Source of the DNA: a virus
Lineage: Duplodnaviria > Heunggongvirae > Uroviricota > Caudoviricetes
Virus record (IMG/VR): IMGVR_UViG_3300006217_000016
Coordinates: 6,503-70,502 of that record
Length of the DNA stretch: 64,000 nucleotides
Direction: 5' to 3' (one strand)
Made by a program: the position numbers and the translations under genes. Within the stretch, counting starts at the first letter, position 1, and each line of letters begins with the position of its first letter. The notes beneath the pieces were generated by a model, which worked only from the letters and a program-made list of their open reading frames with translations, made no database searches and was not told the origin of the DNA. Shown here piece by piece: positions 9,781-52,313 of this stretch.

Positions 9781-10701
9781 TCACCCTTGTTTCTTCAGAT
9801 ATTGGAACATTTCTGTAATATCGTTTGTAATATCGTGCCGGATGGAGCAACAGGAATTCTTTGCGAATTTCCCCTCGACAGCGTCGATATACATGGAGGC
9901 GGACGTGAACTCTCCATCCATACCGTCGTCCCCCATGTAGAATTCCTTCCACTGATCCTCCGACATCAGCCGCCTTACATCGAGCTGGCGAATAGCAAGA
10001 TTGTCAAAGCTGACTGCTTTGAAGAAGCCATGTTTCACAGCGTCACCCAATGCGTTATAGAGTGCAACCTTTTTAGCCGCGATGTCTTCGCCGTGCCGCT
10101 CCAAGTTGTCCTCGCCGCGCCGGAAATCTTTATACCCGAGAATCAGAATCTTCAGGTTGTGACCAGCCAGCGACCTGAACCCCTTCATCGAAATCATACC
10201 GTTGATGATGTGAATGACAGCATTGGGGTAATACTTAACCATCTCAATAAAGCTGTCTGTGTCTTCCGTCCAGTCCAGATAGGAGATACCAAGCCCATAA
10301 ATTAACCCATGCTCCGTCAGGTATCGGAGCATGGGAAGATTTTTCATGAAATGCGTTTTGTTAACCGTGATATTGGGAATCAGCTTCCGCTCTTTGAGTT
10401 GCTGTAGAAATGGAATCAAATCTGGATGGGCGAGCGGATTGCCGCCGCCAATAGCAAGCTCAGTATAGGGGCGGATAGAATCCAAGAATGGCAGATGCAG
10501 GATGTCTCCATGTCTGCCATCCGGTCTTGAGTCCTCGTGACACATAGCGCATCCCATATCACACTGGTTTGTGATCTTGATGTCAAACGACTCTGGGAAC
10601 TCAGGCTCAAAGAAATCCAGGTCGTTTTCACGAACCTTCGTTCCGTCGCTATAGATTCTCACACGGTAATTCCCGTTGGTGTACTCGCCTAAAATACTCA
10701 C
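9781..10701 (-). CDS. Radical SAM domain protein
   Basis: CxxxCxxC motif (CDMGCAMC) near the N-terminus. GTG start with GGGAGG 9 nt upstream. Confidence 0.6.
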   Translation of the reverse strand: MSILGEYTNGNYRVRIYSDGTKVRENDLDFFEPEFPESFDIKITNQCDMGCAMCHEDSRPDGRHGDILHLPFLDSIRPYTELAIGGGNPLAHPDLIPFLQQLKERKLIPNITVNKTHFMKNLPMLRYLTEHGLIYGLGISYLDWTEDTDSFIEMVKYYPNAVIHIINGMISMKGFRSLAGHNLKILILGYKDFRRGEDNLERHGEDIAAKKVALYNALGDAVKHGFFKAVSFDNLAIRQLDVRRLMSEDQWKEFYMGDDGMDGEFTSASMYIDAVEGKFAKNSCCSIRHDITNDITEMFQYLKKQG

Positions 10702-10719: not shown

Positions 10720-11016
10720 TTATCCGTCTCTCCCGTACTCACCAAACGCGACCATCTTGTCTCCACTCGGCGTAGTGAAGTAGTGGGAGTATGATTCCAT
10801 AGAACCCCAGTCACTGTAACCCAAGTGTCGATGATCCTGATATCGGTATTCCTCAGATTCGAGGAGCAGCTTTGAATACGGAACGAGTTTGCCATCGAAG
10901 CAGTCATACATCAGTTCATCCTGCTTGAATTTCTCGTATTCTTCCTGCGTGCAGATAACGATGCTATGCGTGGAGCTGCTGTTTGTTTCAAACACTCCAC
11001 ATCTTACTTGTCTCAT
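10720..11016 (-). CDS. Small protein with N-terminal MRQVR-VFETNSSSTHS motif (paralog A)
   Basis: Start at the internal ATG, preceded by AAAGGAGAG. The first ~20 aa are shared with the gene at 15550..16068. Confidence 0.55.
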   Translation of the reverse strand: MRQVRCGVFETNSSSTHSIVICTQEEYEKFKQDELMYDCFDGKLVPYSKLLLESEEYRYQDHRHLGYSDWGSMESYSHYFTTPSGDKMVAFGEYGRDG

Positions 11017-11038
11017 ACGCTCTCCTTTTTGATTGCGA

Positions 11039-11803
11039 TTAAAACTCACATTTTATAGGCCGCGATGTCACATTCTGAAAGAATGGCATCGGCAGGAGCT
11101 TGTGCAGGTTACGCTCGTTCATGGTCTTGATTTTACTGTCAAGCGAAGGATCTCCTGTTGTACCGACCATGATGTACTTGTCGAGCTGCGCATAGGTAAA
11201 ACCGAGATTGTCCTCGTCACTTTTGCCACACAGGCCGTCAGACGGCGTTTTGTCCACCAGTTCACGCGGAATGGGCAATTCGTACCCGATTTGCAGGACT
11301 TCACTCACCAGGAGACTGGCAAGAGGACTGAAATCTCCCGCACTGTCCCCAAACTTTGTGGAATATCCCACATAATCCTCTGAGCCATTACATGTGTTGG
11401 CTACCCGTCCGCCGTTCGGAAGCGACTGCGCAACCGCATACAGTGTTGCCATGCGGATGCGAGCTGGCAGATTTACCTTCGACTGCTCCGTTACAGGCAT
11501 ATAACCGCGAATTTCCAAAGTCAGACGCTCAATCGCTCCTCCGATATTGATAGTGCAGTGCTCAATGCCAAGCGTCTCCACTACCTTTCGGCTGTCCTTG
11601 ATGTCGTGCTGGACACCATTTGGCATCAAAACACCAAATACGCGGTCTTTGCCGAGCGCCTCAACGCACAGGGCGGCGACAATCGAGCTGTCTTTCCCGC
11701 CAGAAATTCCGACAACCGCACTGCACTCCGGGCCGTTTTCCTGAAAATAATCACGAATCCACTGAACGATTGCGTCTTTTGTGTGTTTTGGGTTTGGAAG
11801 CAT
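11039..11803 (-). CDS. nadE: NH3-dependent NAD+ synthetase
   Basis: PP-loop SGGKDS and overall NadE-like sequence. RBS GAGGGG upstream. Confidence 0.8.
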   Translation of the reverse strand: MLPNPKHTKDAIVQWIRDYFQENGPECSAVVGISGGKDSSIVAALCVEALGKDRVFGVLMPNGVQHDIKDSRKVVETLGIEHCTINIGGAIERLTLEIRGYMPVTEQSKVNLPARIRMATLYAVAQSLPNGGRVANTCNGSEDYVGYSTKFGDSAGDFSPLASLLVSEVLQIGYELPIPRELVDKTPSDGLCGKSDEDNLGFTYAQLDKYIMVGTTGDPSLDSKIKTMNERNLHKLLPMPFFQNVTSRPIKCEF

Positions 11804-11806
11804 AAA

Positions 11807-12246
11807 TTACCCCTCTTTTCTCCATAGTTCTACCGTGTATTGCTGGCCAAGAATCTTCTCAATGATTCCGAACACAACACCCCAGTTGCCTCCACCAAGA
11901 CCACATCCAATCTTGTATGGCATTGCAATCGTCTCGCCAGCAGGAACGATCTGTTTTAATTGGAGTAGACACTTTTCAAAAGCTGCATAGTCTGTGTACT
12001 GCCTTCCGTTATAACCGTACTGGTCTTGAGAAAACAGATTGCAAACAACCTGGGGATCAATATTCTTGCCATCAACAGGTGTGCGCCCTCATCGCACCTG
12101 ACCTTATACCATTTGTAAACTGTGGGGAATTTTGTCCTTATCTGCTTTGCGACGCCGCTTCCCATTTTCCCTTGGCAGTTCACTTGGTGGCAAATATAAT
12201 TTGATTTTGTAGAGAACAGGTCTCCATCAATTATTTTGATAGACAT
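11807..12246 (-). pseudogene. Macro-domain (ADP-ribose binding/processing) gene interrupted by a -1 frameshift near 12078-12081
   Basis: The N-terminal part (GDLFSTKSNYICHQVNCQGKMGSGVAKQIR...YKWYKVRCDEGAH) is in one frame. The C-terminal macro core (VDGKNIDPQVVCNLFSQDQYGYNGRQYTDYAAFEKC...AMPYKIGCGLGGGNWGVVFGIIEKIL...) continues in the -1 frame and stops at 11807-11809, just before the nadE ATG. The 5' ATG overlaps the NAMPT stop (ATGA). Confidence 0.6.
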
Positions 12247-13772
12247 CAAAATTCCCCTCCATGGAGATTCTGCCGAACCTCATCCAAGGTATAAATTTTG
12301 ATGAACTCCCCATTCTTGAAGACCACCCGTAATTCATTGTTCTCTTGAGCCTCAGCCCAAGTTAGGCCATCCTTATAGATGTAGTTATCACCGTTTTTGA
12401 TCACACGGCAGCAACCCCGCTGAGACTTCTTGAAGTGACCAGTGTCGGTCTTGGGATTCTTGAAAATCATGATGGGCTTGCCGTCTGCATCCTCGGCATA
12501 GGTGGCCTTAACGGCGATACCAAAGGTGTCACGGGTGTATGGTGCGTATGTCTTATTGACAACAGAGATACCGGAAACGGGATTGGGTTCACTTCGTTCC
12601 AAAGTCTCCAAGCACTGCATGGAGAAGGAACCGACGCCAAGGGAGACATTGTTAATGGCAAACCCGTTGGATTCCAGAATCTGATAGATTTGCTTGCATC
12701 GCTGGGGAGTAATGCTGTCACCATACAACGCCTTGACGTGCGGATTCAGCACTTTGAACCCCTTGCTGTTCACGGTGCCTCCAAAAATGTCCCACAGCTT
12801 GAACGCAGTCTTGGTCACGACCTCGACGGGGTCTCCACTGTCTCCACGGATAAGCAGACATCCATCGTGTGCCAGAATCTCGTCTTTGAGCTGCGGCAGG
12901 ATGTTGTCTACCAGATTCCAGTAATCGTAGCTGTCACTGACCATGGAGAAGTTCTGGTGAGGGTAAATCTCGGTCAGCAGACGGCGGATATGGGTGACCT
13001 CGTCACCGTCCATAGCGAAGTTGGAACACATCACGCTGTGTTCGGTGGACAAAGCGCCATAGGCTACCGGCTCCTTAGCACAGTCGCAGTGATAGTTGTC
13101 CTCCAGCCACAGGATTGCGGGAACAGTGGCGGTGTTCAGGAAGCTGAGACAGAAAGCGGCAGAACTTTTGGTGGCGCTCTCCACGCTCTCTTGACCACGC
13201 ATGGAAAAATCGCCAAGGAGTCTGGCGCGGACCACGCTGTCATCACAGGTGCGATCTGTAAACTCGTTGACGATTTGGCGGTAGCGATAGCCGACCTCGG
13301 CGGAAACTTGGGTGTGCCACATGGTGCAGGACAGCATGGTCTCAATGGAGTTCACCAGCCACACAAAGTTCGGATGGGTGTTGGAAATCTCAATTTGCGG
13401 CACCTTGATATTGGTACGCACACCCTCCGGCACGGCCCGAATCTCTAGGGGAAGATAGCCCAAGTCATGAAGAGCTTTCAGGCGCTTTTCTCCAACACCA
13501 TCGGTGTTGATGGTGGCGTTGAGAACCCGCTTATACTCGCTGAGGACATCCTCCCAGTCCTCTTGGAAGAAAAAGTGGTTGAAGGCATCAACGAGGTACT
13601 CCTTGATGAACGCCTGGAGGCCAAACATCGTGACCTTATCTGTGTCTCCCAGCCGGGTCATGCGGGGAGTGTAGTAGGAGACCATCTTGGTCAGGGTCTG
13701 CGGATACTGCTCTGCGTGGGCCGTCTTGTAAAAGTCCAGGCAAAGCAGTGGATTGTAGCAACAACCACTCAT
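12246..13772 (-). CDS. nadV: Nicotinamide phosphoribosyltransferase (NAMPT/NadV family). A NARP1-type Namat (NAMPT/PncB homolog) cannot be excluded.
   Basis: The N-terminus aligns well with NAMPT (DFYKTAHAEQYP vs DSYKVTHYKQYP). The C-terminal VFKNGEFIKIYTLDEVRQN also matches. Confidence 0.75.
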   Translation of the reverse strand: MSGCCYNPLLCLDFYKTAHAEQYPQTLTKMVSYYTPRMTRLGDTDKVTMFGLQAFIKEYLVDAFNHFFFQEDWEDVLSEYKRVLNATINTDGVGEKRLKALHDLGYLPLEIRAVPEGVRTNIKVPQIEISNTHPNFVWLVNSIETMLSCTMWHTQVSAEVGYRYRQIVNEFTDRTCDDSVVRARLLGDFSMRGQESVESATKSSAAFCLSFLNTATVPAILWLEDNYHCDCAKEPVAYGALSTEHSVMCSNFAMDGDEVTHIRRLLTEIYPHQNFSMVSDSYDYWNLVDNILPQLKDEILAHDGCLLIRGDSGDPVEVVTKTAFKLWDIFGGTVNSKGFKVLNPHVKALYGDSITPQRCKQIYQILESNGFAINNVSLGVGSFSMQCLETLERSEPNPVSGISVVNKTYAPYTRDTFGIAVKATYAEDADGKPIMIFKNPKTDTGHFKKSQRGCCRVIKNGDNYIYKDGLTWAEAQENNELRVVFKNGEFIKIYTLDEVRQNLHGGEF

Positions 13773-13993
13773 TTCTCATCATCCTCACTTTCAACTTTCT
13801 TTCCCGCATAGTAGATTGCAAATGCAAGAGGAGCCACGATAAACCACAAAGCCATGATCCATATTGGTAGATAGTGCATATCTTCCAGGTCGCTATAGCT
13901 GTTCTTTTTATACATCAGGTAGTAGTAAAAACCGCCAAGAGAAGAACCAATCAGAATGTAAGTGATAACAATTAAAACGATTAGAAACAGCAT
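13769..13993 (-). CDS. Small membrane protein
   Basis: 74 aa with two TM helices. RBS GAGGTGA upstream. ATGA overlap with the NAMPT start. Confidence 0.5.
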   Translation of the reverse strand: MLFLIVLIVITYILIGSSLGGFYYYLMYKKNSYSDLEDMHYLPIWIMALWFIVAPLAFAIYYAGKKVESEDDEK

Positions 13994-14002
13994 ATTGTCA
14001 CC

Positions 14003-14170
14003 TCAATAGTGAATTTTCTGGACATAACCACACTTTTTGCAACGGTATATTTCTGTGTATCCAATAGGCATATCCTGTGGAGCCCACTCAGAATAGTTGG
14101 TTACTCTCGTGATATGTTCCCACTCATGTTTGCAAAACAGCGAGCGGATATAGTTGATAAGCCATCTCAT
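14003..14170 (-). CDS. Small zinc-ribbon-like protein (MRWLINYIRSLFCKHEW...CKKCGYVQKIHY)
   Basis: 55-aa ORF not in the track (under 60 aa). RBS GGAGGTG upstream. Fills the gap between the prs-like and membrane protein genes. Confidence 0.35.
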   Translation of the reverse strand: MRWLINYIRSLFCKHEWEHITRVTNYSEWAPQDMPIGYTEIYRCKKCGYVQKIHY

Positions 14171-14186
14171 CGCGCACCTCCTATGA

Positions 14187-14987
14187 CTACTCTAATACAG
14201 CCACTTTCTCATGTTCACCACGATAGATGCTGTTTGTTGTAAATACTCGTGAAATCTGGCCATCTGTCAACACGGAGCCCTTGAAGATGGTGCTCTCACA
14301 ATGGGACACATACAGAAAAATTTCCTTTGCACCAGCTTCTTTCAGGGCAGCAGCAGTATGGGTAAACGTACCGCCACGGGAGCAAATGTCGTCCACAATA
14401 AGAACATTTCGACCGGCGACCTTCTCACTGTTGGCGAGTTCAAGCCCTTCAATTTTGCCAGTGCGCCAGTCACGGTGCTTGATACCGAACACATACTCCC
14501 GGCCCATCAGGTCGGAGTACCGCTTGGCAGCGCCCTCGTCCGGGTAGCACATCAGAACATCAGTATCGCCTGTATCAGCCATGACACGCTCAATAGCCAG
14601 ACGGATATTGTCCGCAGGCTCCTTCACGCAGATGCGGTCGATAAGCGCTGCCGCCACATTGGAATGTGGATCAAGCACTTCAACCTTACGAAAGTTGAGA
14701 GTGTTAATGAACTCGGCGAACCATTTCAGGGTGAACACCTCGTCGCCGCTCTTGACCCTGTCCATACGAGCATTGGGAATGTACGGCAAAACGAGCTCAA
14801 TATCCACACCCATCCGATTGTTCGCCCGAATGTGATGCACCAAATGCCACAGGAGCATACACTCGTGGTCGCCATCATACCGCCACTCAATACGGAACCA
14901 GACAGCGTCTTTGGTATCAAGGCGGAAGGATGTGGTCCCGTCTGGGAACTGCGTAAAGTTAACAGGGGTTCTGTTCACCAGAATCAT
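14187..14987 (-). CDS. Short ribose-phosphate pyrophosphokinase (Prs)-like enzyme; PRPP synthetase or ADP-ribose pyrophosphokinase (Adps-like)
   Basis: N-terminal Prs domain (FPDGTTSF...PYIPNARMDR). PRTase-type motif VLIVDDICSRGGT. 266 aa, shorter than canonical Prs. Confidence 0.7.
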   Translation of the reverse strand: MILVNRTPVNFTQFPDGTTSFRLDTKDAVWFRIEWRYDGDHECMLLWHLVHHIRANNRMGVDIELVLPYIPNARMDRVKSGDEVFTLKWFAEFINTLNFRKVEVLDPHSNVAAALIDRICVKEPADNIRLAIERVMADTGDTDVLMCYPDEGAAKRYSDLMGREYVFGIKHRDWRTGKIEGLELANSEKVAGRNVLIVDDICSRGGTFTHTAAALKEAGAKEIFLYVSHCESTIFKGSVLTDGQISRVFTTNSIYRGEHEKVAVLE

Positions 14988-14990
14988 GTC

Positions 14991-15539
14991 TTACTCCTCC
15001 CAGTTCTCAATGTTGATTTGACACATCTTCATGGCCTTGAGGGCATTTTCGTGGCTCTCTGGTGTCACGCCAGCGCAGCAAGCGGCATCCACCGTAATTT
15101 TGACTTCCGGCAAAAACGCTTTAAGCAGCAGCGCGTTGGAAATGACACAGATATCGGTGCAGAGGCCGACCAGGACAATCTCGTCAATATGGCTCGACAC
15201 GCTGTTTTTAATGCGCAGGTACTCGCCAAGTTCAATAGAGCCAAACGTTTTCTTTCTGAAAGTAGAAGTCCACTCCTCCTTGTCTACGATTGCATTGAAA
15301 AGCACATCAGGGGCGCACCAGCCCTCGGTCTTATCAATGCAGTGCTCAACGGGGAGCATCTTCCCTTCCTGCGTCTCCAGATAGTCCTTATCGTGGGTAT
15401 CAAAGGTTGCAAGGATCTCGCCGTCAAACTCTTCGGCTTTCGCAACAACCTTCGGCAGAATCGCCTGCGCCTCTTTGGTGCCAAGAGACCCATCAATGAA
15501 ATCGTTTTGCATATCAACAATGACCAATACCTTACTCAT
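14991..15539 (-). CDS. pncA: Nicotinamidase/isochorismatase-family hydrolase (PncA-like)
   Basis: VLVIVDMQNDF and GLCTDICV motifs. Start at the internal ATG with AGGAGG upstream. Confidence 0.7.
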   Translation of the reverse strand: MSKVLVIVDMQNDFIDGSLGTKEAQAILPKVVAKAEEFDGEILATFDTHDKDYLETQEGKMLPVEHCIDKTEGWCAPDVLFNAIVDKEEWTSTFRKKTFGSIELGEYLRIKNSVSSHIDEIVLVGLCTDICVISNALLLKAFLPEVKITVDAACCAGVTPESHENALKAMKMCQINIENWEE

Positions 15540-15549
15540 ATGTACCTCC

Positions 15550-16068
15550 TTAGTTCCCCTTGTAGTAAAATTCGTGCCGGTAATCGACATGGAAATTTTC
15601 CACGCGATCATCGTCAATTTCATCACTTGTTGTTAAAACAACGCTTTTATCGGAGAATAAATAACGGAGCAGCCGCCCGCTGCTCCGAAGTATTCCGTCC
15701 ACGAACCTCAGATGATCGTCCTCACCAGCATGATCGACAAAAGCATTAACGCAATAAACGCCGCTTCCATATCTGTGATAGGTGGCCTTTTCAAACTCAC
15801 ATTGAACACCAACTTTCATCAGTTCTTCCATAATCCATGTCTTTGCGTTCTCTGCCTTTTTCATTTCATAAAGCGACAGGATACTGGAGTATAAATACGC
15901 AGCCTTATCCTCGACTGACCGCAGTTCAGCAGGCTCTCGGCCAAAATCGTCACATCGAAAATACACCTTTTCTGGATATTCTAGTTCAGCCTTCCTGTCC
16001 GTCACAATACAAATACAGTGGGTGCTGCTGGAATTGGTCTCAAACACCGAATTTCGTACTTGCCGCAT
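15550..16068 (-). CDS. Protein with N-terminal MRQVR-VFETNSSSTHC motif (paralog B)
   Basis: Start at the internal ATG, preceded by AAGGAGA. Shares its N-terminal 20 aa with 10720..11016. Confidence 0.55.
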   Translation of the reverse strand: MRQVRNSVFETNSSSTHCICIVTDRKAELEYPEKVYFRCDDFGREPAELRSVEDKAAYLYSSILSLYEMKKAENAKTWIMEELMKVGVQCEFEKATYHRYGSGVYCVNAFVDHAGEDDHLRFVDGILRSSGRLLRYLFSDKSVVLTTSDEIDDDRVENFHVDYRHEFYYKGN

Positions 16069-17594: not shown

Positions 17595-17669
17595 TGGTGA
17601 CCCGGACGGGAGTCGAACCCGCGTTACCAGAGTGAAGGTCTGGTGTCTTAACCGCTTGACTACCGGGCC
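17595..17669 (-). tRNA. tRNA, probably Glu (UUC) with an unusual C33
   Basis: Clean cloverleaf. Acceptor GGCCCGG/CCGGGTC, T-loop TTCGACT, CCA encoded. Anticodon loop CCUUCAC. Confidence 0.6.
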
Positions 17670-17672
17670 GTA

Positions 17673-17748
17673 TGGTCTGAGTGGGGAGGATCGAACTCCC
17701 GGCCTCGTGATCCCAAATCACGCGCTCTGCCAACTGAGCTACACCCAG
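17673..17748 (-). tRNA. tRNA-Pro (UGG)
   Basis: Acceptor CTGGGTG/CACTCAG with C1-G72. D-arm GCTCAGTTGGCAGAGC. Anticodon loop TTTGGGA. CCA encoded. Confidence 0.75.
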
Positions 17749-17851
17749 ATATTGTGCGGGCGGGGATTTTCACCCCGCATAGGTAAGATTATGTACCTGC
17801 TACCGAGCTTGTCGCCCATCGGCTACTTCACCGAACCCAAACAGGAGGACA

Positions 17852-17930
17852 ACGATGGACTCGAACCATTGTCTTACCCTACCTCTCGTTATAGCGTCTA
17901 CCTATTCCGCCACCGCACATTTTGTATTGT
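17852..17930 (-). tRNA. Degenerate tRNA-like remnant (T-loop GGTTCGAGTCC; no consistent acceptor or anticodon arm)
   Basis: T-arm-like sequence found, but hand-folding failed. Adjacent GCGGGG-ATTTTCA-CCCCGC hairpin at 17764-17782. Confidence 0.2.
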
Positions 17931-18039
17931 GTAGCTCTAAAAACAGGACTCCCGCAGGCGAGCGTCCCTGTAAACCTGCTACACTCGGTTTTGAGCGTGC
18001 CCATCCCGCAGGGCGGCGGGGTGCTCCGTGTACTTTGGA

Positions 18040-18074
18040 GCAAAGAAAAAGATCGTGCCGAGAACTACGGCACG
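18040..18074 (-). terminator. Rho-independent terminator just 3' of tRNA-Gly
   Basis: Hairpin CGTGCCG-AGAACTA-CGGCACG followed by a U-run on the minus strand. Confidence 0.55.
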
Positions 18075-18075
18075 C

Positions 18076-18151
18076 TGGAGTGAGAGACGGGACTTGAACC
18101 CGCAGCTTCCGACTTGGAAGGACGGCACTCTGCCAGTTGAGTTACTCCCAC
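18076..18151 (-). tRNA. tRNA-Gly (UCC)
   Basis: Acceptor GTGGGAG/CTCTCAC. D-stem ACTC/GAGT. Anticodon loop CTTCCAA. T-arm GCGGGTTCAAGTCCCGT. CCA encoded. Confidence 0.75.
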
Positions 18152-18154
18152 AGA

Positions 18155-18573
18155 TGGTGGAGCCGGCGGGAATCGAACCCGCGTCCGAAATTCCTACATG
18201 AGCAAGACCTTTTTACGCAATAGGTTTCCTTTTAGGTGGATGCCTTATGGCGGGGCACCAAGATGGAATCCAAATCTACCCCAGGGCGTACCAGTTAAGT
18301 ACACCTCCACCACCTTGTCTTTTTGAACAGATTACAAGGAAAACTGTTTTTCTGGCGTATCCTCGACCGCAGGTACTTACCCAGCCAGAGGTGTACCGTT
18401 TTGGAATCCTGCCGACAGTTAAGCGGCGACCCTCTCTGCCATGAAGGCGGCGAAAGCGGGATGGATCATAACAACACTCATATCATTGTCATTTCATTTT
18501 TTGTTTAGCCTTAAGGCGGTCTCTACCTGCGAATCTTACTCTCTCAGAACCCCGTCGAAACCTTTACGGCCCC
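18155..18573 (-). ncRNA. ssrA: tmRNA (SsrA), about 419 nt
   Basis: 5' end GGGGCCGUAAAGGUUUCGACGGGG and 3' end AUGUAGGAAUUUCGGACGCGGGUUCGAUUCCCGCCGGCUCCACCA are near-identical to bacterial tmRNA termini. An internal frame ends ...AFAAFMAERVAA-UAA (stop near 18419-18421), consistent with a degradation tag. Confidence 0.8.
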
Positions 18574-18603
18574 GTAAAAGAGGCCCGGCGTATAGCCGGG
18601 CCG
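18574..18603 (-). terminator. Hairpin GGCCCGGC-GTATA-GCCGGGCC plus U-run immediately 5' of tmRNA (terminator-like or processing element)
   Basis: Perfect 8-bp stem followed by UCUUUU on the minus strand. Confidence 0.4.
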
Positions 18604-18677
18604 TTCCCCACATTGTTATAGACCGCATGGGTGCGCTGTCTTATTAAATACCATGTTTGCACGTTCCCCTTTCGGGG

Positions 18678-18753
18678 TGGAGCTGGTAACAGGAGTCGAA
18701 CCCGCGACACTCGGAGTACAAAACCGATGCTCTACCAACTGAGCTATACCAGC
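18678..18753 (-). tRNA. tRNA-Thr (UGU)
   Basis: Acceptor GCTGGTA/TACCAGC. D-arm GCTCAGTTGGTAGAGC. Anticodon loop TTTGTAC. CCA encoded. Confidence 0.75.
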
Positions 18754-18756
18754 AAA

Positions 18757-18832
18757 TGGAGCTGATGCACGGACTCGAACCGCGAACCTAAGCTTTACGA
18801 AAGCCTCGCTCTGCCATTAGAGCTACATCAGC
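18757..18832 (-). tRNA. tRNA-Thr (CGU)
   Basis: Acceptor GCTGATG/CATCAGC. Anticodon loop TTCGTAA. T-loop TTCGAGT. CCA encoded. Confidence 0.7.
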
Positions 18833-18836
18833 ATGT

Positions 18837-18911
18837 TGGCTGGGGTGACTGGATTCGAACCAGCGAATGAGGGAGTCAAAGTCCCTTGCCTTGCCGCTTG
18901 GCGACACCCCA
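18837..18911 (-). tRNA. tRNA-Gln (UUG)
   Basis: U1-A72 acceptor (TGGGGTG/CACCCCA). Anticodon loop CTTTGAC. T-loop TTCGAAT. CCA encoded. Confidence 0.7.
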
Positions 18912-21643: not shown

Positions 21644-22783
21644 TTATGCGGCCAAATCCTCATGGATGGTACGCATTACGTCCGTTTGATATTTTTCGTT
21701 GTTGTACTTGATGACCTCGTCAACATACTTTTCTTCAACCATCCGGTAGTAGTTGATAAGGCCGCGCAAAACCTGAACATCGTGCAGTTCCCAGACAATT
21801 CCGTTCTTACGGTCGAGGATGTAGTTGCTGATCATTGCACGAAAACGCTGCTTGTTCTTGTGACCGATGGTGATCTCATTGTCCTTATTGAGCATGAGCC
21901 CGAGGTTCCAATTACTGCCGGCTCTGGAACCATACCTCGTCTTCTCATCCTTGATCTTGAACGGCGCATGGAAATCATCCAGCGTCTGATTGATGAAGTC
22001 GATGACCTTATTGTAGTCAAACTCTCTCCGGCTTGAAATTAGAGAGTCGTCTGCGTATCTGGTGTAAACGAACGACTGCCCGTTAAAATCACGCAGGGTA
22101 TTGTATACCTTGTGATCAAGGGGGATCATCATCAGATTTGTGAGCATCGGAGAAATCGGCGTGCCCTGCGGCAATCCGCCATGAAGAAAACAGAGGTTGA
22201 GTGCCTTGTCCAGTGCTGCTCTGCCCCGTTCTGACTTGACAATCTCGCTGAACGGGAAAATCAAAGAGAGCGAATACCGAAGGAATACCAGCGTTGTGTC
22301 CCCAAAAAAGTTCGAGAAATCCGTCTTTAAGAACCAATGACTGTCATTCCTCTGGTGACGTTTGATGGCGTCAATGGTGGAACGATTCTTAACATAGGCA
22401 AAGGCGGAGGTGTGGTACAGCGCAAACATCTTGGTCTCAAACAAAGTCTTCAGATTCCGAAGCGCCGTCATCAGTTCTGGCACAGGGGCATTGATCTCAC
22501 GCAGGCCGCCGGACTTCTTCGGAATATGGAATGTGGTATAGAGGGCTTCTCTCGGAACGGCATACAGCTCGGCATTTTGTTCGCAAAAACTCTCCAGAGC
22601 GGAGACCATACCGGCGAAATCGAACCGATCCAGAAACTGTGGCTTGAGTCGCTGTGCGAAATGCGTTCTGGTATTGGTGCTGTTTGAAGTTATCATAGAC
22701 TGCATGTTGACCTCACCAGATATGATTTCCTCAAATGATATCTGATGGTATGCAGGCGATTGCATGACGGTTATGTATGGCAT
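21644..22783 (-). CDS. Reverse transcriptase, retron/group-II-like (QGxxxSP and YADD motifs), 379 aa
   Basis: Motifs IPKKSGGLREINAP (RT1), FLKTDFSNFF (RT3), LPQGTPISP (RT4), YTRYADD (RT5). RBS AGGAGG upstream. Confidence 0.85.
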   Translation of the reverse strand: MPYITVMQSPAYHQISFEEIISGEVNMQSMITSNSTNTRTHFAQRLKPQFLDRFDFAGMVSALESFCEQNAELYAVPREALYTTFHIPKKSGGLREINAPVPELMTALRNLKTLFETKMFALYHTSAFAYVKNRSTIDAIKRHQRNDSHWFLKTDFSNFFGDTTLVFLRYSLSLIFPFSEIVKSERGRAALDKALNLCFLHGGLPQGTPISPMLTNLMMIPLDHKVYNTLRDFNGQSFVYTRYADDSLISSRREFDYNKVIDFINQTLDDFHAPFKIKDEKTRYGSRAGSNWNLGLMLNKDNEITIGHKNKQRFRAMISNYILDRKNGIVWELHDVQVLRGLINYYRMVEEKYVDEVIKYNNEKYQTDVMRTIHEDLAA

Positions 22784-31348: not shown

Positions 31349-31434
31349 AGAGAGTGGTGGGAATCGAACCCACGCAGCGCATATCCGGTTGACAGGCATG
31401 TATCTGCCCCGCTCTGCCACTGAGCTACACTCTC
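31349..31434 (-). tRNA. Atypical tRNA (anticodon arm folds only with a 6-nt loop GATACA; about 20-nt unstructured variable region)
   Basis: Perfect acceptor GAGAGTG/CACTCTC. D-arm GCTCAGTGGCAGAGC. T-arm GTGGGTTCGATTCCCAC. No CCA. Anticodon not assignable. Confidence 0.45.
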
Positions 31435-44015: not shown

Positions 44016-46781
44016 GTGAGCATTATTTCCAAACAACAGTCTTGCCAGAAGTTTATCCTCAAACTTCATAGCGCACGCTTACGCAAGGCAAGGTGGAATT
44101 TGACGCTCCCTATCTCCGAGGCGCGGAGAAACGATGAAGTCATTTCCCTCAGCGACAGCCAGATGCTGCGCTTCATCGATAAGCTGAATGGCATCGAGAA
44201 CGCAGACGCGATTGCGAAAGAGATTAAGAGCGAAATAAAAATGCTCAGAAAACAAATAAATTCTCTACAAAATCGCAAGAAAATTAAAAGTTTATACGAG
44301 AAATTAGATGAAATACAATACAAACCAGATTACATGTGTTTGATCATCGACAAAGAGAAAGACTATTGGAGAGCTTGCAAGGGCTTCAAGATCAACGGGG
44401 TGAAGTACGTTAGGCTGCTGGGTACCAACGGCGGCATCAAGAACTCGACCATCGTGTTCGTCAGCGATAGGATGGCGCCTGAGCTGCGCCGGCGTATTGA
44501 CAACGGGAGGGACAAGAGCAAGGAGCTGGTACCGGCCAAGCTGGAAGCGTATCAGGCGCTGGCCTGCAGCGGCTCCATCCCGGTGTCCTACCCCAACGGC
44601 ATCGCCGTGGTCGAGGACTGCGTGACGCACTTCAAGTCCGACGTCATCAACATCGAGGACTCGGACGGTGAACCGAAGATGTGGTTCCAGGCCGGGGCGG
44701 ATGTGGAGCTCGACGAGTCGGACGGGTACGGCATCATGCTCCCGTCTCTGGCGAGAAGGTGGTCGGAAGAACTTCAGCTCGACTACATGGTAAGCGGAGT
44801 CAACACCCGTCTGTCCTTTGAGAAGGGGATGGTCTTCACCTTCGACTTCCTGGAGTTTGCCGACGAGGTGGCCGGCACCCGCATCATCAAAGATGCGTGG
44901 GGTAACGATGTGGATCTCTCAAACGTGGAGCTGATACTCACCACGTCCATGGTCAAGCTGTGGGACAGCTACGCGAGCTGTGAGGACTACCTGCGCAACT
45001 GCAAGGAGAACGGGTATACCTTCGGCATCACAAAGTCCTGCCCAAAGGTTTTGGAGAATGAGCGCAGTACCAACTACCAGTTCCTCCAGGTGTACGACCT
45101 GGACGACGCACAGGTCGAGCAGCTCATCCAGCCGACCATGCAGGAGATCCACGACATCCTGGCGCTCGACTGGAGGAAGGCCGCTCTGTTCCTCAAGGGC
45201 GTAGGGCTGAACGAGGAGAACATCGACTTCATCGAGTCGGACTTCGCGAAGGCCATCATGGTGGAGCCCAGGATGATGGACGACCCATTCGTCACGAAGA
45301 AGATCTACGGTATGATAAAGAAGCGCATCATCGACGCGAAGATCGGCGTCATCAAAGTGCGCGGCAACTACTCCATCATCTCCGGCGACCCATACGCGCT
45401 GTGTCAGAGCATCTTCGGTCTGGAAGTCACCGGGCTGCTGAAGGCCGGCGAGATCTACAACAAGTATTGGTTAGACCACGGTGTAGACAACGTGGTGTGC
45501 TTCCGCGCTCCTATGACCTGTGCCAACAACGTAATCAAGATGCACGTCAACGGAAGTGAGGAGGCACAGCACTGGTACAGATATATGGTGTCATGTTCGC
45601 TGCTGAATGCCTGGGACACCACGGCGGCTGCGCTGAACGGCGCGGACAAAGACGGTGATCTGATTTTCACAACGGACAATGAGATACTGGTGTCGTGCCA
45701 CAGGCAGCTCCCCGCGCTCATGTGTGCCCAGAGGAAAGCGACGAAGTGCGTGCCGACGCAGGAGGACATCATCAACTCGAACATCGCCAGTTTCGGCGAT
45801 GACATCGGGAAGATCACGAACCACATCACATCTATGTTCGATGTGATATCCATGTATGAGAAGGGCAGCCCGGAGTACGAGGCGCTCGACTACCGTATCA
45901 AGTGTGGGCAGAAGTTCCAGCAGGACTCCATCGACCGGGCCAAGGGCATCATCTCAAAGCCAATGCCAAAGAGCTGGTATGACAGGGCGTATGTCAGGAA
46001 CGCATATGGCGACGATGAAGAGAAGGTACAGTTCGCCATGAAGATCGTTGCGGACAAGAAGCCATACTTCATGCGGTACATCTACCCGACGCTGATGCGC
46101 CAGTACACTACATACGTTTCCAACACCAACAAGAAGGCGCTTCGCGAGTTCCGCCTGACCATTGACGAGCTGATAGAGAAGGAGCGCGCAGGCGGTCTGT
46201 CTGACGAAGAACGGGAGTTCCTACACTACTATCGTATCAAGACGCCGGTGGGAGTACATGACTGTGTGATGAACAGAATATGCCGGCGCTTCGAGGACGA
46301 GTTCGATGGGTACATCACCCGCCACAACTCCGACGTCGAGTTCGACTATACGATTATGAAGAGCGGCGTGGAGTATACACAGACCCAGTACAACGCAATC
46401 CTTCGGTTGTACGAAGCGTACAACAAGCGGATGCAGGACTATATGCAGTACGCAAAGAAGGAGCGCCTGGATGAAGACGAGAACATGAACCACAGGTACG
46501 TTATGGTTCAGGACTTCCGCAGAGAGTGCCAGATTGTTTGCTCCAATAAAAGTCAGTTGTGTGACATACTGTTGGATATATGTTATCAGAAAGAAGGGTC
46601 AAAGCAGTTTGTCTGGGACATGGCAAGCGATGAAATCATCGACGCTTTGGTCAGGAACAACGGCGGCTATATTTCCTTCCCTGCCCGCGACGACAACGGA
46701 GACGTTTTGTTTGGCGGCGAACGGTTCTCGTTCGCAAGAAAGCAGATTGGAGGGGAAGCAGATGAATATAGTGCTGAATGA
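44016..46781 (+). CDS. Large protein with a beta-prime-like double-psi beta-barrel catalytic motif: candidate YonO-like single-subunit two-barrel RNA polymerase
   Basis: VVCFRAPMTCANNVIKMHV ... ALNGADKDGDLIFTT parallels RNAP beta-prime NRAPTLHRL ... AYNADFDGDQMAVH. 921 aa. GTG start. Confidence 0.5.
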   Translation: MSIISKQQSCQKFILKLHSARLRKARWNLTLPISEARRNDEVISLSDSQMLRFIDKLNGIENADAIAKEIKSEIKMLRKQINSLQNRKKIKSLYEKLDEIQYKPDYMCLIIDKEKDYWRACKGFKINGVKYVRLLGTNGGIKNSTIVFVSDRMAPELRRRIDNGRDKSKELVPAKLEAYQALACSGSIPVSYPNGIAVVEDCVTHFKSDVINIEDSDGEPKMWFQAGADVELDESDGYGIMLPSLARRWSEELQLDYMVSGVNTRLSFEKGMVFTFDFLEFADEVAGTRIIKDAWGNDVDLSNVELILTTSMVKLWDSYASCEDYLRNCKENGYTFGITKSCPKVLENERSTNYQFLQVYDLDDAQVEQLIQPTMQEIHDILALDWRKAALFLKGVGLNEENIDFIESDFAKAIMVEPRMMDDPFVTKKIYGMIKKRIIDAKIGVIKVRGNYSIISGDPYALCQSIFGLEVTGLLKAGEIYNKYWLDHGVDNVVCFRAPMTCANNVIKMHVNGSEEAQHWYRYMVSCSLLNAWDTTAAALNGADKDGDLIFTTDNEILVSCHRQLPALMCAQRKATKCVPTQEDIINSNIASFGDDIGKITNHITSMFDVISMYEKGSPEYEALDYRIKCGQKFQQDSIDRAKGIISKPMPKSWYDRAYVRNAYGDDEEKVQFAMKIVADKKPYFMRYIYPTLMRQYTTYVSNTNKKALREFRLTIDELIEKERAGGLSDEEREFLHYYRIKTPVGVHDCVMNRICRRFEDEFDGYITRHNSDVEFDYTIMKSGVEYTQTQYNAILRLYEAYNKRMQDYMQYAKKERLDEDENMNHRYVMVQDFRRECQIVCSNKSQLCDILLDICYQKEGSKQFVWDMASDEIIDALVRNNGGYISFPARDDNGDVLFGGERFSFARKQIGGEADEYSAE

Positions 46782-49519: not shown

Positions 49520-50581
49520 ATGCCGAAGCAGAGTAAGATTGCAAGCACAAGGCCAAACGCGGCGGCTCCGGTTAAACAAGGCCCGGATCGGTTTTACTGT
49601 ACCAGGTGTGAGCGTTCGTTCACAAAGCAGAAGAGTAACTTCCCTGGTTCGCAGAGTCCGCTGTGGAGGAACAACAACGGGTATATACCTGTGTGCCGGC
49701 ATTGCGTCGATGAAATATATAATCATTATAAGGAGACGCTGGGCGACGAGAAGGCCGCCATCCGGCGTATATGCCTGAAGTTCGATATCTACTGGAGCGA
49801 GAAGATCTACAAGATGTTGGTTAAGACTTGCACTACGAACTCTCGCGTCTTGAGCTACATAAGCAAGTCGAACCTGTACCAGTTTGTCGGGAAGACATTT
49901 GACGACACACTGGACGAAGAATATGCGGCGGAAGCAGATAAGACCGCTTGGCAGCTCCGGCAAGGCGATGCCGACAGTTATGTGGATGGTCAGGATGATC
50001 CATCCATAGAACAGATAGACCAGGAAGTCATTGACTTCTGGGGACCCGGTATGACGCCAACCATGTATATGGAGTTGGAGCAGCGCAAGGTTTATTGGAT
50101 GAGCCACTTGCCTGCCGGCGTTGAAGTCGGTATCGGGCTTGAGGCTTTGATCCGCCAGATCTGCAGTATGGAGGTTGATATCAACCGAGACCGTGCTGCG
50201 GGTAAGTCGGTTGATAAGGCGGTCGGTACACTGAACACTTTGATCGGGAGCGCTATGCTCAAGCCGAGCCAGAAATCTGACAGTTCGGACAGCTCCCTGG
50301 AGAAGACTCCGTTCGGAGTGTGGATCAAGAAGTGGGAAGATAAGAGACCGATCCCAGAGCCCGACCCGGATATGAAGGATGTAGATGGTATCGTCAGATA
50401 CGTTGAGATCTGGATGAAGGGGCATCTGTCAAAGATGCTTGGGCTCAAGAACGCATACTCTGCTCTGTACGATAAAGAGATTGCGAAGAAGCGCGTGGAG
50501 CGCCCAGAGTTTGACGACGAGGATGACGAGACCTTCTTCTCTGACGTGTTCGGAGAGGAGGGTCAGGATGACGAGAGCTGA
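49520..50581 (+). CDS. Zinc-ribbon protein upstream of the large terminase (candidate small terminase subunit/DNA-binding protein)
   Basis: Position immediately 5' of TerL with an overlapping stop. CTRCERSF...CRHC motifs. RBS GAGGTGA. Confidence 0.3.
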   Translation: MPKQSKIASTRPNAAAPVKQGPDRFYCTRCERSFTKQKSNFPGSQSPLWRNNNGYIPVCRHCVDEIYNHYKETLGDEKAAIRRICLKFDIYWSEKIYKMLVKTCTTNSRVLSYISKSNLYQFVGKTFDDTLDEEYAAEADKTAWQLRQGDADSYVDGQDDPSIEQIDQEVIDFWGPGMTPTMYMELEQRKVYWMSHLPAGVEVGIGLEALIRQICSMEVDINRDRAAGKSVDKAVGTLNTLIGSAMLKPSQKSDSSDSSLEKTPFGVWIKKWEDKRPIPEPDPDMKDVDGIVRYVEIWMKGHLSKMLGLKNAYSALYDKEIAKKRVERPEFDDEDDETFFSDVFGEEGQDDES

Positions 50582-52313
50582 GAAAATCATGCAAGGCGCA
50601 GCGGTGTACTGCGCCTTTTATCGTGCAAATCCAGCGAGGTTTGCCAAAGACTATCTGCATCTTGACCTGAGACTCTTCCAGAAGATCGTCATCACGATGA
50701 TGATCCTATGCTCGAACGCTGTGTTCATCGGCGCTCGTGGTATTGGTAAGACATTCATCAGCGCGGTGTTCTGTGTTATCCGCTGTATCCTGTGGCCCGG
50801 TACCAAGGTGTGTATTGCATCAGGCACGAGGGGACAGGCCATCAATGTCTTGGAAAAGATTATGTTGGAACTCAAACCAAACTCACCGGAGTTGGCTGCT
50901 GAGATCGACATGAAAGAAACCAAGATAAACGGTACGGACGCGAAGATCGTTTTCCTGAACGGGTCATATATCAAGGTCGTCACCGCGTCCGACTCCAGCC
51001 GTGGTAACCGCGCAAACGTTCTAATCCTTGATGAGTTCCGTCTGATCTCCAAGGATGTCATTGATACGATTCTGCGCAAGTTCCTGACACAGCGGCGTAT
51101 GCCAAAGTATGAGGAGCTGACCAAGGCGGAGCGCCGTGCGGAGTATGACAAAGAAAAGAACATGACCGCGTACCTGAGTTCTGCGTATTACTCCGACCAC
51201 TGGAGTTATACAAAGTGCCAGGATACGTTCAAGGCCATGCTGGATGAATCGAAGTCTCAGTTTGTGTGCAGCCTTCCATATCAGCTTTCTATCGAGGAAG
51301 GCTTGCTGGATGCTGATACTGTTCTGGACGAAATGTCGGAGACAGACTTCTCTGATATCAAGTTCTCCATGGAGTATGAGGCGCTGTTCTACGGCAGCTC
51401 TGAGGATGCGTTCTTTGATTTCGCATCTGTCTCCAAGAACCGGCGTATCAAGTACCCTATGTTCCCGGACAGGTCATCCGGGAAACTTATGTCCAACGCG
51501 AACATCAGCATACCCCCAAAGAGACCTGGCGAGAAACGTATCCTCTCTGTCGATATCGCTCTGATGAAGAGCAAGAAGAGAAAGAAGAAAAACGACGCCA
51601 CGGCAATCTTTGTGAATCAGATGCTGCCAACAAAGGCAGGCAGGTATGTGAGTAACATCGTGTACGCCGATGGCAATGAGGGTATGCACACTGCAGACCA
51701 GGCATTGCTCGTCCGCAAGTTGTTCGACGAGTATGAATGCGACTATCTGGTTATCGACGCGAACGGCGTAGGCGCCGGCGTTGCTGACCTGCTGCTCCGC
51801 GATATACCAGACCCGGTGACCGGAGATATCTACCCGGCTATATCATGCTGCAACAACCAGGACATGGCAGACCGGTGTATATCAAAAGACGCCAAGAAAG
51901 TAATCTGGGCAATCAAGGCAACGTCGAAGTTTAACTCCGACATTGCGTATCTTCTGCGCGAGGGGTTCAGCAGCGGCCGCGTTCGTCTTCTGGACACAGA
52001 GATCAACGGCGAGACGAGTATGAATGAGCTGCGCGGATATTCGTCACTCAACCCGTCTGAGCGCACGTTTATGTCTCTGCCGTATGTCCACACCACTCTT
52101 CTGATCGACGAGCTGACAAAGCTCCAGCATGAAGAGAAGGATGGGCTCGTCAGAGTATACGAGCGCTCCGGGAAGCGCAAGGATAGATACTCCAGTCTGG
52201 CATATAACTACTGGGTCGCCTGCCAAGTCGAGACAAAGATCCGTAAGCGGAGTGTGTCGGCACAGTCAGGGAGCGGCCCTCAGTTTATGTTCCGGGCACC
52301 AAAAGTCAAGTAA
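50568..52313 (+). CDS. terL: Terminase large subunit
   Basis: Walker A GARGIGKT, Walker B LILDEF, and a C-terminal nuclease-like region. Start at MTRAEK with GGAGAGGAGGG upstream. Confidence 0.75.
   Translation: MTRAEKIMQGAAVYCAFYRANPARFAKDYLHLDLRLFQKIVITMMILCSNAVFIGARGIGKTFISAVFCVIRCILWPGTKVCIASGTRGQAINVLEKIMLELKPNSPELAAEIDMKETKINGTDAKIVFLNGSYIKVVTASDSSRGNRANVLILDEFRLISKDVIDTILRKFLTQRRMPKYEELTKAERRAEYDKEKNMTAYLSSAYYSDHWSYTKCQDTFKAMLDESKSQFVCSLPYQLSIEEGLLDADTVLDEMSETDFSDIKFSMEYEALFYGSSEDAFFDFASVSKNRRIKYPMFPDRSSGKLMSNANISIPPKRPGEKRILSVDIALMKSKKRKKKNDATAIFVNQMLPTKAGRYVSNIVYADGNEGMHTADQALLVRKLFDEYECDYLVIDANGVGAGVADLLLRDIPDPVTGDIYPAISCCNNQDMADRCISKDAKKVIWAIKATSKFNSDIAYLLREGFSSGRVRLLDTEINGETSMNELRGYSSLNPSERTFMSLPYVHTTLLIDELTKLQHEEKDGLVRVYERSGKRKDRYSSLAYNYWVACQVETKIRKRSVSAQSGSGPQFMFRAPKVK

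Follow-up and report, generated by a model that had tools for sequence, protein, structure and literature searches.

A gut-phage cassette of Adps/Namat type joined by nicotinamidase and NAD+ synthetase genes, predicted to rebuild NAD+ through nicotinate

Depletion of nicotinamide adenine dinucleotide (NAD+) is among the commonest anti-phage strategies of bacteria, and the known phage answers to it are the NAD+ reconstitution pathways NARP1, NARP1-AP, NARP2, and NARP3. NARP1, described by Osterman et al. for Bacillus phage SPbetaL1 and Escherichia phage Bas63 (bioRxiv 10.1101/2024.02.11.579819), pairs the kinase Adps with the transferase Namat, whose structures are available as 9W5W and 9W5X (PMC12774641). 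In NARP1-AP (Adps-Adpp-Namat, Vibrio phage Gary), macro-domain genes in NARP1 operons encode ADP-ribose (ADPR)-1''-phosphate phosphatases, named Adpp, which let NARP1 defeat aRES defense (bioRxiv 10.64898/2026.01.28.702374). NARP2 (Vibrio phage KVP40) combines Nampt with Nmnat, and NARP3 (PnuC and NadR, phage Bas30, PMC13464706) takes up, phosphorylates, and adenylates nicotinamide riboside. Here, we analyzed a stretch of 64,000 nucleotides from the viral record IMGVR_UViG_3300006217_000016, hereafter called the window, which belongs to the genome, about 141 kb in size, of a phage from the human gut, and focused on a minus-strand cassette of NAD-related genes in the region 10720-16068. Our findings suggest, with moderate confidence, that this cassette is a deamidated variant of NARP1, in which nicotinamide would be converted to nicotinate, then to deamido-NAD (NaAD), and finally to NAD+. 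An atypical adenine clamp in the subclade to which the window belongs is one reason for holding this confidence at a moderate level.

The genes at 11039-15539 form a single, tightly packed, co-directional cassette that holds, along the minus strand, a PncA-type nicotinamidase, a Prs-like kinase, two small open reading frames (ORFs), a NAMPT-like transferase, a macro-domain gene, and the NAD+ synthetase NadE. All the NAD-related genes listed in an initial annotation of this stretch were found, and their families were confirmed by Pfam and NCBIfam. That annotation had also proposed a phage NAD+ reconstitution module whose type it left undecided; the module is upheld, and typing with hidden Markov models (HMMs) and sequence comparisons places the Prs-like and NAMPT-like pair in the Adps/Namat (NARP1) type and not in the NampT/Nmnat (NARP2) type, because the transferase is nearest to Namat, the kinase belongs to the Adps family, and no Nmnat is present. 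The lack of a nicotinamide mononucleotide adenylyltransferase (NMNAT), likewise noted before, holds in Pfam and NCBIfam domain scans of the cluster and in a crude regular-expression search of the whole window, which found no (H/T)xGH motif. As in NARP1, a phage-borne Adps-family kinase gene is followed on the same strand by a Namat-family transferase gene, and an adenylyltransferase is not needed. The cassette shares with NARP2 an enzyme of the NAMPT family for restoring phage NAD+, but it has no Nmnat or Nudix gene, its transferase is far nearer to Namat, and an Adps partner is present. With NARP3 it shares the NAD+-restoring counter-defense, whereas the proteins and the chemistry are unrelated.

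The kinase gene (14187-14987, minus strand; 266 amino acids; Pribosyltran/ribP_PPkin) encodes a protein that is 37% identical to the biochemically characterized Adps of SPbetaL1 (E = 2e-50), and the active-site lysine is conserved, with Lys170 of the window protein aligning to Lys162 of SPbetaL1 Adps. On an HMM built solely from 75 Adps sequences of canonical NARP1 loci, the kinase scores 251.4 bits. By contrast, it reaches 99.8 bits on the Prs model TIGR01251, under the cut-off of 113, fails all NCBIfam Prs equivalog cut-offs by a wide margin, and scores only 50.5 bits in a comparison with Bacillus subtilis Prs. A megablast search of the 7-kb region against cultured phages gave zero matches; in a tblastn search against cultured phages, the kinase and the transferase both matched the adjacent Adps and Namat genes of SPbetaL1. 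In the window, the kinase gene lies 415 nt upstream of the transferase gene on the same strand, separated from it by the two small ORFs, and this linkage recurs in 112 related loci. These comparisons group the kinase with the Adps enzymes, apart from the Prs enzymes of bacteria, and it is predicted to act on ADPR over ribose-5-phosphate.

The transferase (12246-13772, minus strand; 508 amino acids; NAPRTase and NAMPT_N domains; NF006629 at 451.8 bits) has SPbetaL1 Namat (9W5X) as its best solved relative (E = 4e-120, 404.9 bits) and is 42-45% identical to it, in comparison with 182 bits for the Xanthomonas (Xcc) Nampt and about 146-150 bits for human NAMPT. In the crystal structure of Namat with nicotinamide, the ring is stacked between Phe189 and Tyr15', the amide is hydrogen-bonded by Asp215, the sole residue doing so, and Ala242 lines the pocket (PMC12774641). 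The equivalent of Asp215 in human NAMPT, Asp219, sets substrate specificity (PMC7096376, PMC9322656). In two alignments (A1 and A2), the window transferase differs from Namat at both pocket positions, carrying Ala215 in place of the nicotinamide-binding Asp and Ser242 in place of Ala, with the motif NTAT where Namat has GTDT. The D219S mutant of NAMPT (Khan et al. 2006) reportedly gains the use of nicotinate.

The remaining catalytic apparatus is kept. The residues for ring stacking and ribose-phosphate binding (Asp13, Tyr15, Phe189, Arg192, His245, Arg309, and Asp311) are all present, and the Nampt-like core is made up of columns that are invariant in A1 and A2, namely Asp13, Tyr15, Phe189, Arg192, the catalytic His, Arg306, and Asp308. 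The stacking residue of the selectivity-clamp loop is also retained, the window Arg aligning with Namat Arg40. In the clamp helix, the motif reads GSFSMQ[CLETLERSEPNPVSGISVVNKTYAPY]TRD in the window as against GSFTYQYNTRD in Namat. This helix, which holds the adenine of ADP-ribose pyrophosphate (ADPR-PP), has 11 residues in all canonical Namats, whereas the group with Ala or Ser at position 215 (hereafter, the Ala/Ser group) carries, barring exceptions, an insertion of variable length. These exceptions are phage Phass-1 and 11 bacterial loci, most of them in Clostridium or its close relatives, which combine the canonical clamp motif (GSYTYQYNTRD or GAYTYQYVTRD) with Ala215; because the two coexist there, ADPR-PP is supported as the donor. 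We therefore predict that the window enzyme is a nicotinate ADP-ribose transferase, with substrates and products deduced from its pocket and its partners.

The two partners that set this cassette apart are PncA and NadE. The nicotinamidase (14991-15539, minus strand; 182 amino acids; Pfam Isochorismatase, 5.5e-21) has the Pyrococcus horikoshii pyrazinamidase/nicotinamidase 1ILW as its best solved relative. Alignment to 1ILW indicates that the catalytic residues Asp9, Lys96, and Cys131 and the metal ligands Asp47, His49, and His66 are all conserved, and the enzyme is predicted to turn nicotinamide into nicotinate and ammonia. NadE (11039-11803, minus strand; 254 amino acids; Pfam NAD_synthase, 5.7e-52) is a single-domain, ammonia-dependent NAD+ synthetase that passes TIGR00552 with 174.7 bits against a cut-off of 63.65, and its best solved relatives are 2E18 (5e-35) and 3FIU (2e-34).

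The association of these partners with the pocket residues was evaluated in loci gathered from IMG/VR: the 34 and the 80 closest to the window protein and the 80 closest to SPbetaL1 Namat. The resulting set of 198 loci (197 viral loci and the window) gave 117 transferase clusters at 95% identity, and partner genes were sought by HMM in the flanks, within about 7 kb. PncA, NadE, and Adps were found together near the transferase in 39 of the 43 Ala/Ser-type clusters, the four exceptions being without one or both of PncA and NadE, or without Adps. In contrast, neither PncA nor NadE was found within this distance in any of the 74 clusters with Asp or Glu at position 215, which correspond to canonical NARP1. 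Position 215 is Asp in 68 of these canonical clusters and Glu in six, and neither residue occurs in the Ala/Ser clusters. The changes of Asp215 to Ala or Ser and of Ala242 to Ser belong to five alignment positions with zero overlap between the two groups. Within the clade, the linkage to PncA and NadE persists down to about 31% identity and across at least four gene orders.

Some members of the set depart from the common arrangement. In the subgroup formed by L092, L094-L096, L098, L101, and L102, the genes run PncA-transferase-NadE, and the sole Prs-like gene is a distant one (27% identity) located 2.3 kb downstream, so that the kinase partner may differ there. In L086-L090, L034/L093, L104, and L116, the transferase matches as two pieces in the same frame, about 265 nt apart (about 7940-8210 in L086). 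The gap may be an in-frame insertion or an intron, and a search with Rfam yielded no intron-like RNA in it.

The same four genes are also found in bacteria. A scan of one genome per species, from which the best 80 loci were taken (48-84% identity), returned mostly Lachnospiraceae, Oscillospiraceae, Ruminococcus, and Clostridium. Among these 80 best loci, every one carries both Ala215 and Ser242, 63 have all three partners (PncA, Adps, and NadE), and in 54 the cassette adjoins a gene for NrtR, a Nudix-related repressor of NAD genes that responds to ADPR and is released by it (PMC2330246). In the viral set, by contrast, an NrtR gene adjoins the cassette in zero of 198 loci, window included. In many Clostridia, the four-gene cassette is a chromosomal operon, usually beside NrtR. 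For instance, Clostridium intestinale DSM 6191 carries the operon Adps-PncA-transferase-NadE-NrtR amid housekeeping genes, and in Dysosmobacter segnis a transferase 77% identical to that of the window lies in prophage-like surroundings. The bacterial locus at L279:5636-10126 provides example coordinates. Similarly, the NrtR-regulated prs-nadV operons of a 2008 survey adjoin NrtR; the survey lists prs-nadV operons and does not list the four-gene prs-pncA-nadV-nadE form (PMC2330246). Since a Clostridial chromosomal operon holds the same four genes, the most likely origin of the phage cassette is a recycling pathway captured from, or shared with, the host, and in the phage it would serve counter-defense. 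The host of the phage is probably an Oscillospiraceae-like member of the Clostridia.

The route that these genes suggest would begin when NAD+-depleting defenses such as TIR, SIR2, and SEFIR cleave NAD+ to ADPR and nicotinamide. PncA would convert the nicotinamide to nicotinate, and Adps would pyrophosphorylate ADPR to ADPR-PP. The Ala215/Ser242 transferase would then join nicotinate and ADPR-PP into NaAD, the predicted product that sets it apart from NARP1, in which NAD+ is formed directly, and NadE would amidate NaAD to NAD+. The macro slot could contribute by returning ADPR-1''-phosphate to ADPR, as Adpp does, a function that would have been inactivated recently in this phage lineage. Four enzymes would close the loop from ADPR and nicotinamide to NAD+ without an adenylyltransferase, which would explain why these four genes travel together.

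Several observations weigh against the deamidated route. It would cost one ATP more than canonical NARP1, and any compensating advantage is a matter of speculation: compatibility with hosts of the Preiss-Handler type, trapping of charged nicotinate in the cell, or an irreversible last step. The predicted nicotinate specificity rests on two pocket substitutions and on gene linkage. The Ala/Ser group is one bipartition of the tree, so that the covariation may reflect one maintained ancestral event and not many independent ones. The clamp helix of the window is non-canonical, with 35 residues as against 11 (an insertion of 24 residues), and it retains the aromatic residue at motif position 3; the one at position 7 is missing throughout its subclade. 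Finally, the substrate of NadE is not fixed by homology because 3FIU, which we take to be a nicotinate mononucleotide (NaMN)-preferring synthetase of Francisella, is as close as the conventional short NAD synthetases.

The main rival, which we regard as unlikely, is a Preiss-Handler-like reading based on phosphoribosyl pyrophosphate (PRPP), in which the Prs-like enzyme would make PRPP, the transferase would have become a nicotinate phosphoribosyltransferase that makes NaMN, host NadD would adenylate it, and NadE would finish the pathway fed by PncA. PncA and NadE are indeed the first and last enzymes of Preiss-Handler salvage (PncA-PncB-NadD-NadE), and the loss of Asp215 together with the PncA/NadE linkage fits nicotinate use equally well under this reading. 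NadD is, to our knowledge, nearly universal in hosts. Moreover, SPbetaL1 Namat accepts PRPP in vitro, and mutations in its clamp, the element remodeled in the window's subclade, lower the use of ADPR-PP and leave that of PRPP unaffected. Nevertheless, the cassette contains neither PncB nor NadD and has a Namat-like enzyme and Adps instead, so that it would need a host enzyme; the kinase belongs to the Adps family (251 bits on the canonical-Adps HMM against 99.8 bits, below the cut-off, on TIGR01251); and SPbetaL1 Adps yielded no product in a Prs-type control reaction (bioRxiv 10.1101/2024.02.11.579819). The full adenine-clamp motif in combination with Ala215 in Phass-1 and the 11 bacterial loci also speaks against PRPP as the donor, and the frequent macro or HAD-like phosphatase slot, which parallels Adpp, would be left without a role. 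Less probable still is that the pair performs ordinary NARP1 chemistry, making NAD+ from nicotinamide and ADPR-PP, with PncA and NadE as auxiliaries to host Preiss-Handler salvage and the change of Asp215 to Ala functionally neutral. The pair is clearly homologous to validated NARP1, and gut jumbo phages are reported to have various genes for NAD synthesis, nadE and pncA among them (PMC11662467). This reading is at odds with the Namat structure, where no residue other than Asp215 forms a hydrogen bond to nicotinamide, with the retention of Asp or Glu in all canonical clusters and of neither in the 43 viral Ala/Ser clusters or the 80 bacterial loci, and with a PncA/NadE linkage that is split by type (39/43 versus 0/74) and outlasts the shuffling of gene order.

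Compared with canonical NARP1, then, the cassette preferred here as a deamidated variant keeps the catalytic His, Arg306, Asp308, the stacking residues Phe189 and Tyr15, and the clamp-loop Arg40, and differs from it in the two pocket substitutions, the clamp insertion, the missing aromatic residue, and the company of PncA and NadE. We find it about evenly balanced whether the Ala215/Ser242 enzyme is an unrecognized nicotinate ADP-ribose transferase that makes up a fourth route with PncA, Adps, and NadE, one that would serve NrtR-controlled recycling in gut Clostridia and, once captured, phage counter-defense, with a macro or HAD-like phosphatase as an optional addition. A literature search pairing NARP1 with nicotinamidase, NAD synthetase, nicotinate, or NaAD found no paper on this variant. 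If the proposal is correct, NAD biochemistry would gain a novel enzymatic reaction along with a further way of reaching NaAD, and the cassette would present a counter-defense module as a captured host housekeeping operon. The proposal would also explain the widespread "prs-nadV"-like operons of gut Clostridia, now reconstructed as rare NadV salvage. The signature of Asp215 to Ala or Ser and Ala242 to Ser, with PncA and NadE nearby, could then annotate hundreds of phage and bacterial loci that are labeled as NAMPT or Prs.

Between the transferase and NadE genes lies the macro-domain gene (11807-12246, minus strand), which spans two frames and matches Pfam Macro at 9e-6 when these are joined. 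Its reading frame shifts by -1, with codons 1-56 running from 12246 in one frame and the rest, to 11807, in the -1 frame. Among intact homologs, P0001 in locus L206 is the closest; it has 170 amino acids and is 90% identical over the aligned columns. DNA alignment with L206 indicates that the window is short by 73 nt at a junction that falls exactly between 12080 and 12079 (GCGCACA before it and CCTGTT after it) and contains no homopolymer and no slippery heptamer. The deletion removes 24 codons, EKDRLGLSRSPLLGQVQVVYKEDY, including a conserved LLGxxQxV strand; all relatives compared align here, a few of them with other residues in place of the Leu-Gly pair. Judged from these alignments, the macro gene is a real pseudogene, neither an artifact nor a programmed shift. 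The initial annotation had placed the frame change near 12078-12081, without a homopolymer, and had offered a pseudogene, a sequencing error, or a programmed shift as its cause; the location proved correct, and the first of the three causes is the one that stands.

It is hardly credible that the gene is truly intact and misread by a sequencing or assembly error, or that it is expressed by a programmed -1 ribosomal frameshift. In favor of such readings, the frame past the junction is both open and well conserved; when the two remnants are compared with the intact gene, the ratio of nonsynonymous to synonymous substitution rates (dN/dS) is 0.066-0.08, the same as for NadE. A run of four C residues and then AGG is also found 25 nt beyond the junction. 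An error is contradicted by the deleted allele itself, which is identical over 447/447 nt in eight assemblies (L198-L205) that come from separate samples and from the JGI, ENA, and Logan pipelines and show 0-15 substitutions relative to the window elsewhere; among 5.8 billion proteins, none was found that represents an intact allele with 90% identity or more. A ribosomal shift could not restore the protein because the 24 codons are deleted, and the junction is without a slippery heptamer. In the relatives, the macro genes align unbroken over the matched stretch, which is mostly the whole protein. A frameshift at the C4 run 12052-12055, by loss of one base or by a P-site slip before the rare AGG, would have given a plausible LLMARILIP strand; this candidate was overturned by the 73-nt deletion relative to P0001 in L206. 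Because the dN/dS of the remnants equals that of NadE, the loss is recent, and the dead gene offers a clean natural case of the loss of an accessory anti-defense gene.

Before its inactivation, the macro gene may have been the counterpart of Adpp in NARP1-AP. Its intact homolog P0001 matches phrog_335, "phosphatase," at 8.7e-41 and shares 30% identity (E = 3e-9) with a macro gene beside an Adps-like gene in Vibrio phage 184E37-3b. The two systems have in common a macro-domain gene inside the operon. They differ in that the gene of the window is dead and is located between the transferase and NadE genes, in contrast to its position between Adps and Namat in NARP1-AP, and in that the slot is filled in sister phages of the window by an intact macro gene or by a HAD-like protein with a DxDxT motif, or is left empty. 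Because its content varies in this way, the slot fits an optional accessory function. The HAD-like protein is found in seven of the 43 Ala/Ser clusters and 11 of the 74 canonical NARP1 clusters (18 in total; for instance, L001:9555-9974 and L025:9482-9865). It has no Pfam match, its matches being PDB 2OBB (E = 4e-4) and phrog_1238 only, and it is a candidate for an alternative ADPR-1''-phosphate phosphatase.

Two genes that share the N-terminal motif MRQVRxxVFETNSSSTH bracket the cassette, as the initial annotation had observed. The downstream gene, flankA (10720-11016, minus strand; 98 amino acids), begins with MRQVRCGVFETNSSSTHS... and starts 22 nt past the NadE stop, and the upstream gene, flankB (15550-16068, minus strand; 172 amino acids), belongs to an uncharacterized phage family and has the conserved N-terminus MRQVRNSVFETNSSSTHC. 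Across their N-terminal 41 residues, the two proteins show 51% identity (E = 6e-10); beyond these they are unrelated, and the motif has no further copies in the window. The flanking family corresponds to phrog_28997, which is uncharacterized and to which flankA is matched at E = 3.7e-5 by residues 3-25 alone. For flankB, AlphaFold2 gave a confident model that had no informative structural neighbor.

The further suggestion that these genes are the duplicated border of a mobile module did not survive comparison, and we consider it very improbable. In its favor, the paralogs stand on either side of the cassette in the window and in L004, L206 likewise has flankA, and the gene order and accessory content of the cassette differ between phages. 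The shared 5' ends, however, have a DNA identity of only about 70% and differ synonymously, for instance AGCAGCTCC versus TCCAGCAGC; because of this, the paralogs are held to be old, conserved as proteins, and not recombination repeats. Their similarity ends after 41 residues. Among the IMG/VR loci, L004 is the only one with both genes in these positions (L206 stops short of the flankB position), and more than 100 loci have the cassette without these two genes. Members of phrog_28997 also occur singly or in tandem away from the cassette, including in the canonical NARP1 phages L105, L108, L134, L140, and L161. Furthermore, the cassette keeps the same place relative to the p146 gene in L003, L004, L018, and L027, and no empty site with a single hybrid motif gene was found in related phages. 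On this evidence, flankA and flankB are best described as old paralogs and not as borders of a mobile module.

The window matches a 141.5-kb contig of the JGI metagenome 3300006131 at 100% identity over 12.7 kb, and its phage hallmarks include a large terminase gene (50439-52313), 12 tRNAs, and one tmRNA. In the region 10720-16068 there are nine co-directional ORFs on the minus strand, with spacing of 22 nt or less or small overlaps. The two small ORFs of the cassette, which the initial annotation had not mentioned, fill a variable spacer between the Adps and transferase genes and have no link to NAD. The first (14003-14170, minus strand; 55 amino acids) is Cys-rich, with a CxxC...CxxC pattern, and matches only PHROGs of unknown function; it is shared by L003 and L207 only, other relatives having a different spacer. 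The second (13769-13993, minus strand; 74 amino acids) is hydrophobic, shares 4 nt with the beginning of the transferase gene, and has no family match in Pfam, NCBIfam, or PHROGs. A promoter and terminator scan gave weak consensus matches alone.

Directly downstream of the cassette lies a gene for a radical-SAM-like Fe-S protein (9781-10701, minus strand; phrog_16999) with a CxxxCxxC motif, followed by a YunG-like phage protein (PF24591; 8965-9294, minus strand), and both genes are kept in sister phages. The closest named phage with the cassette is Phage Phass-1 (L001; OQ749652.1), which belongs to a "code 15" clade and has the suppressor tRNA Sup-CTA. No suppressor tRNA was found in the window, and the cassette genes of the window translate normally under table 11. 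The tmRNA gene (18155-18573, minus strand; Rfam RF00023, 96 bits), with the tag peptide AVEDTPEKQFSL, is located within a tRNA cluster at 17595-18911. An 86-nt tRNA at 31349-31434 (minus strand; Rfam tRNA, 46 bits) is given a four-base anticodon, "acat," by ARAGORN, and its amino acid is unassignable. Elsewhere in the window, a reverse transcriptase gene (21644-22783, minus strand; RVT_1, 3e-17) lies upstream of a gene of the RdRP family (44016-46781, plus strand), whose 921-amino-acid product matches Pfam RdRP PF05183 at 6e-11 and may be a YonO-like single-subunit RNA polymerase.

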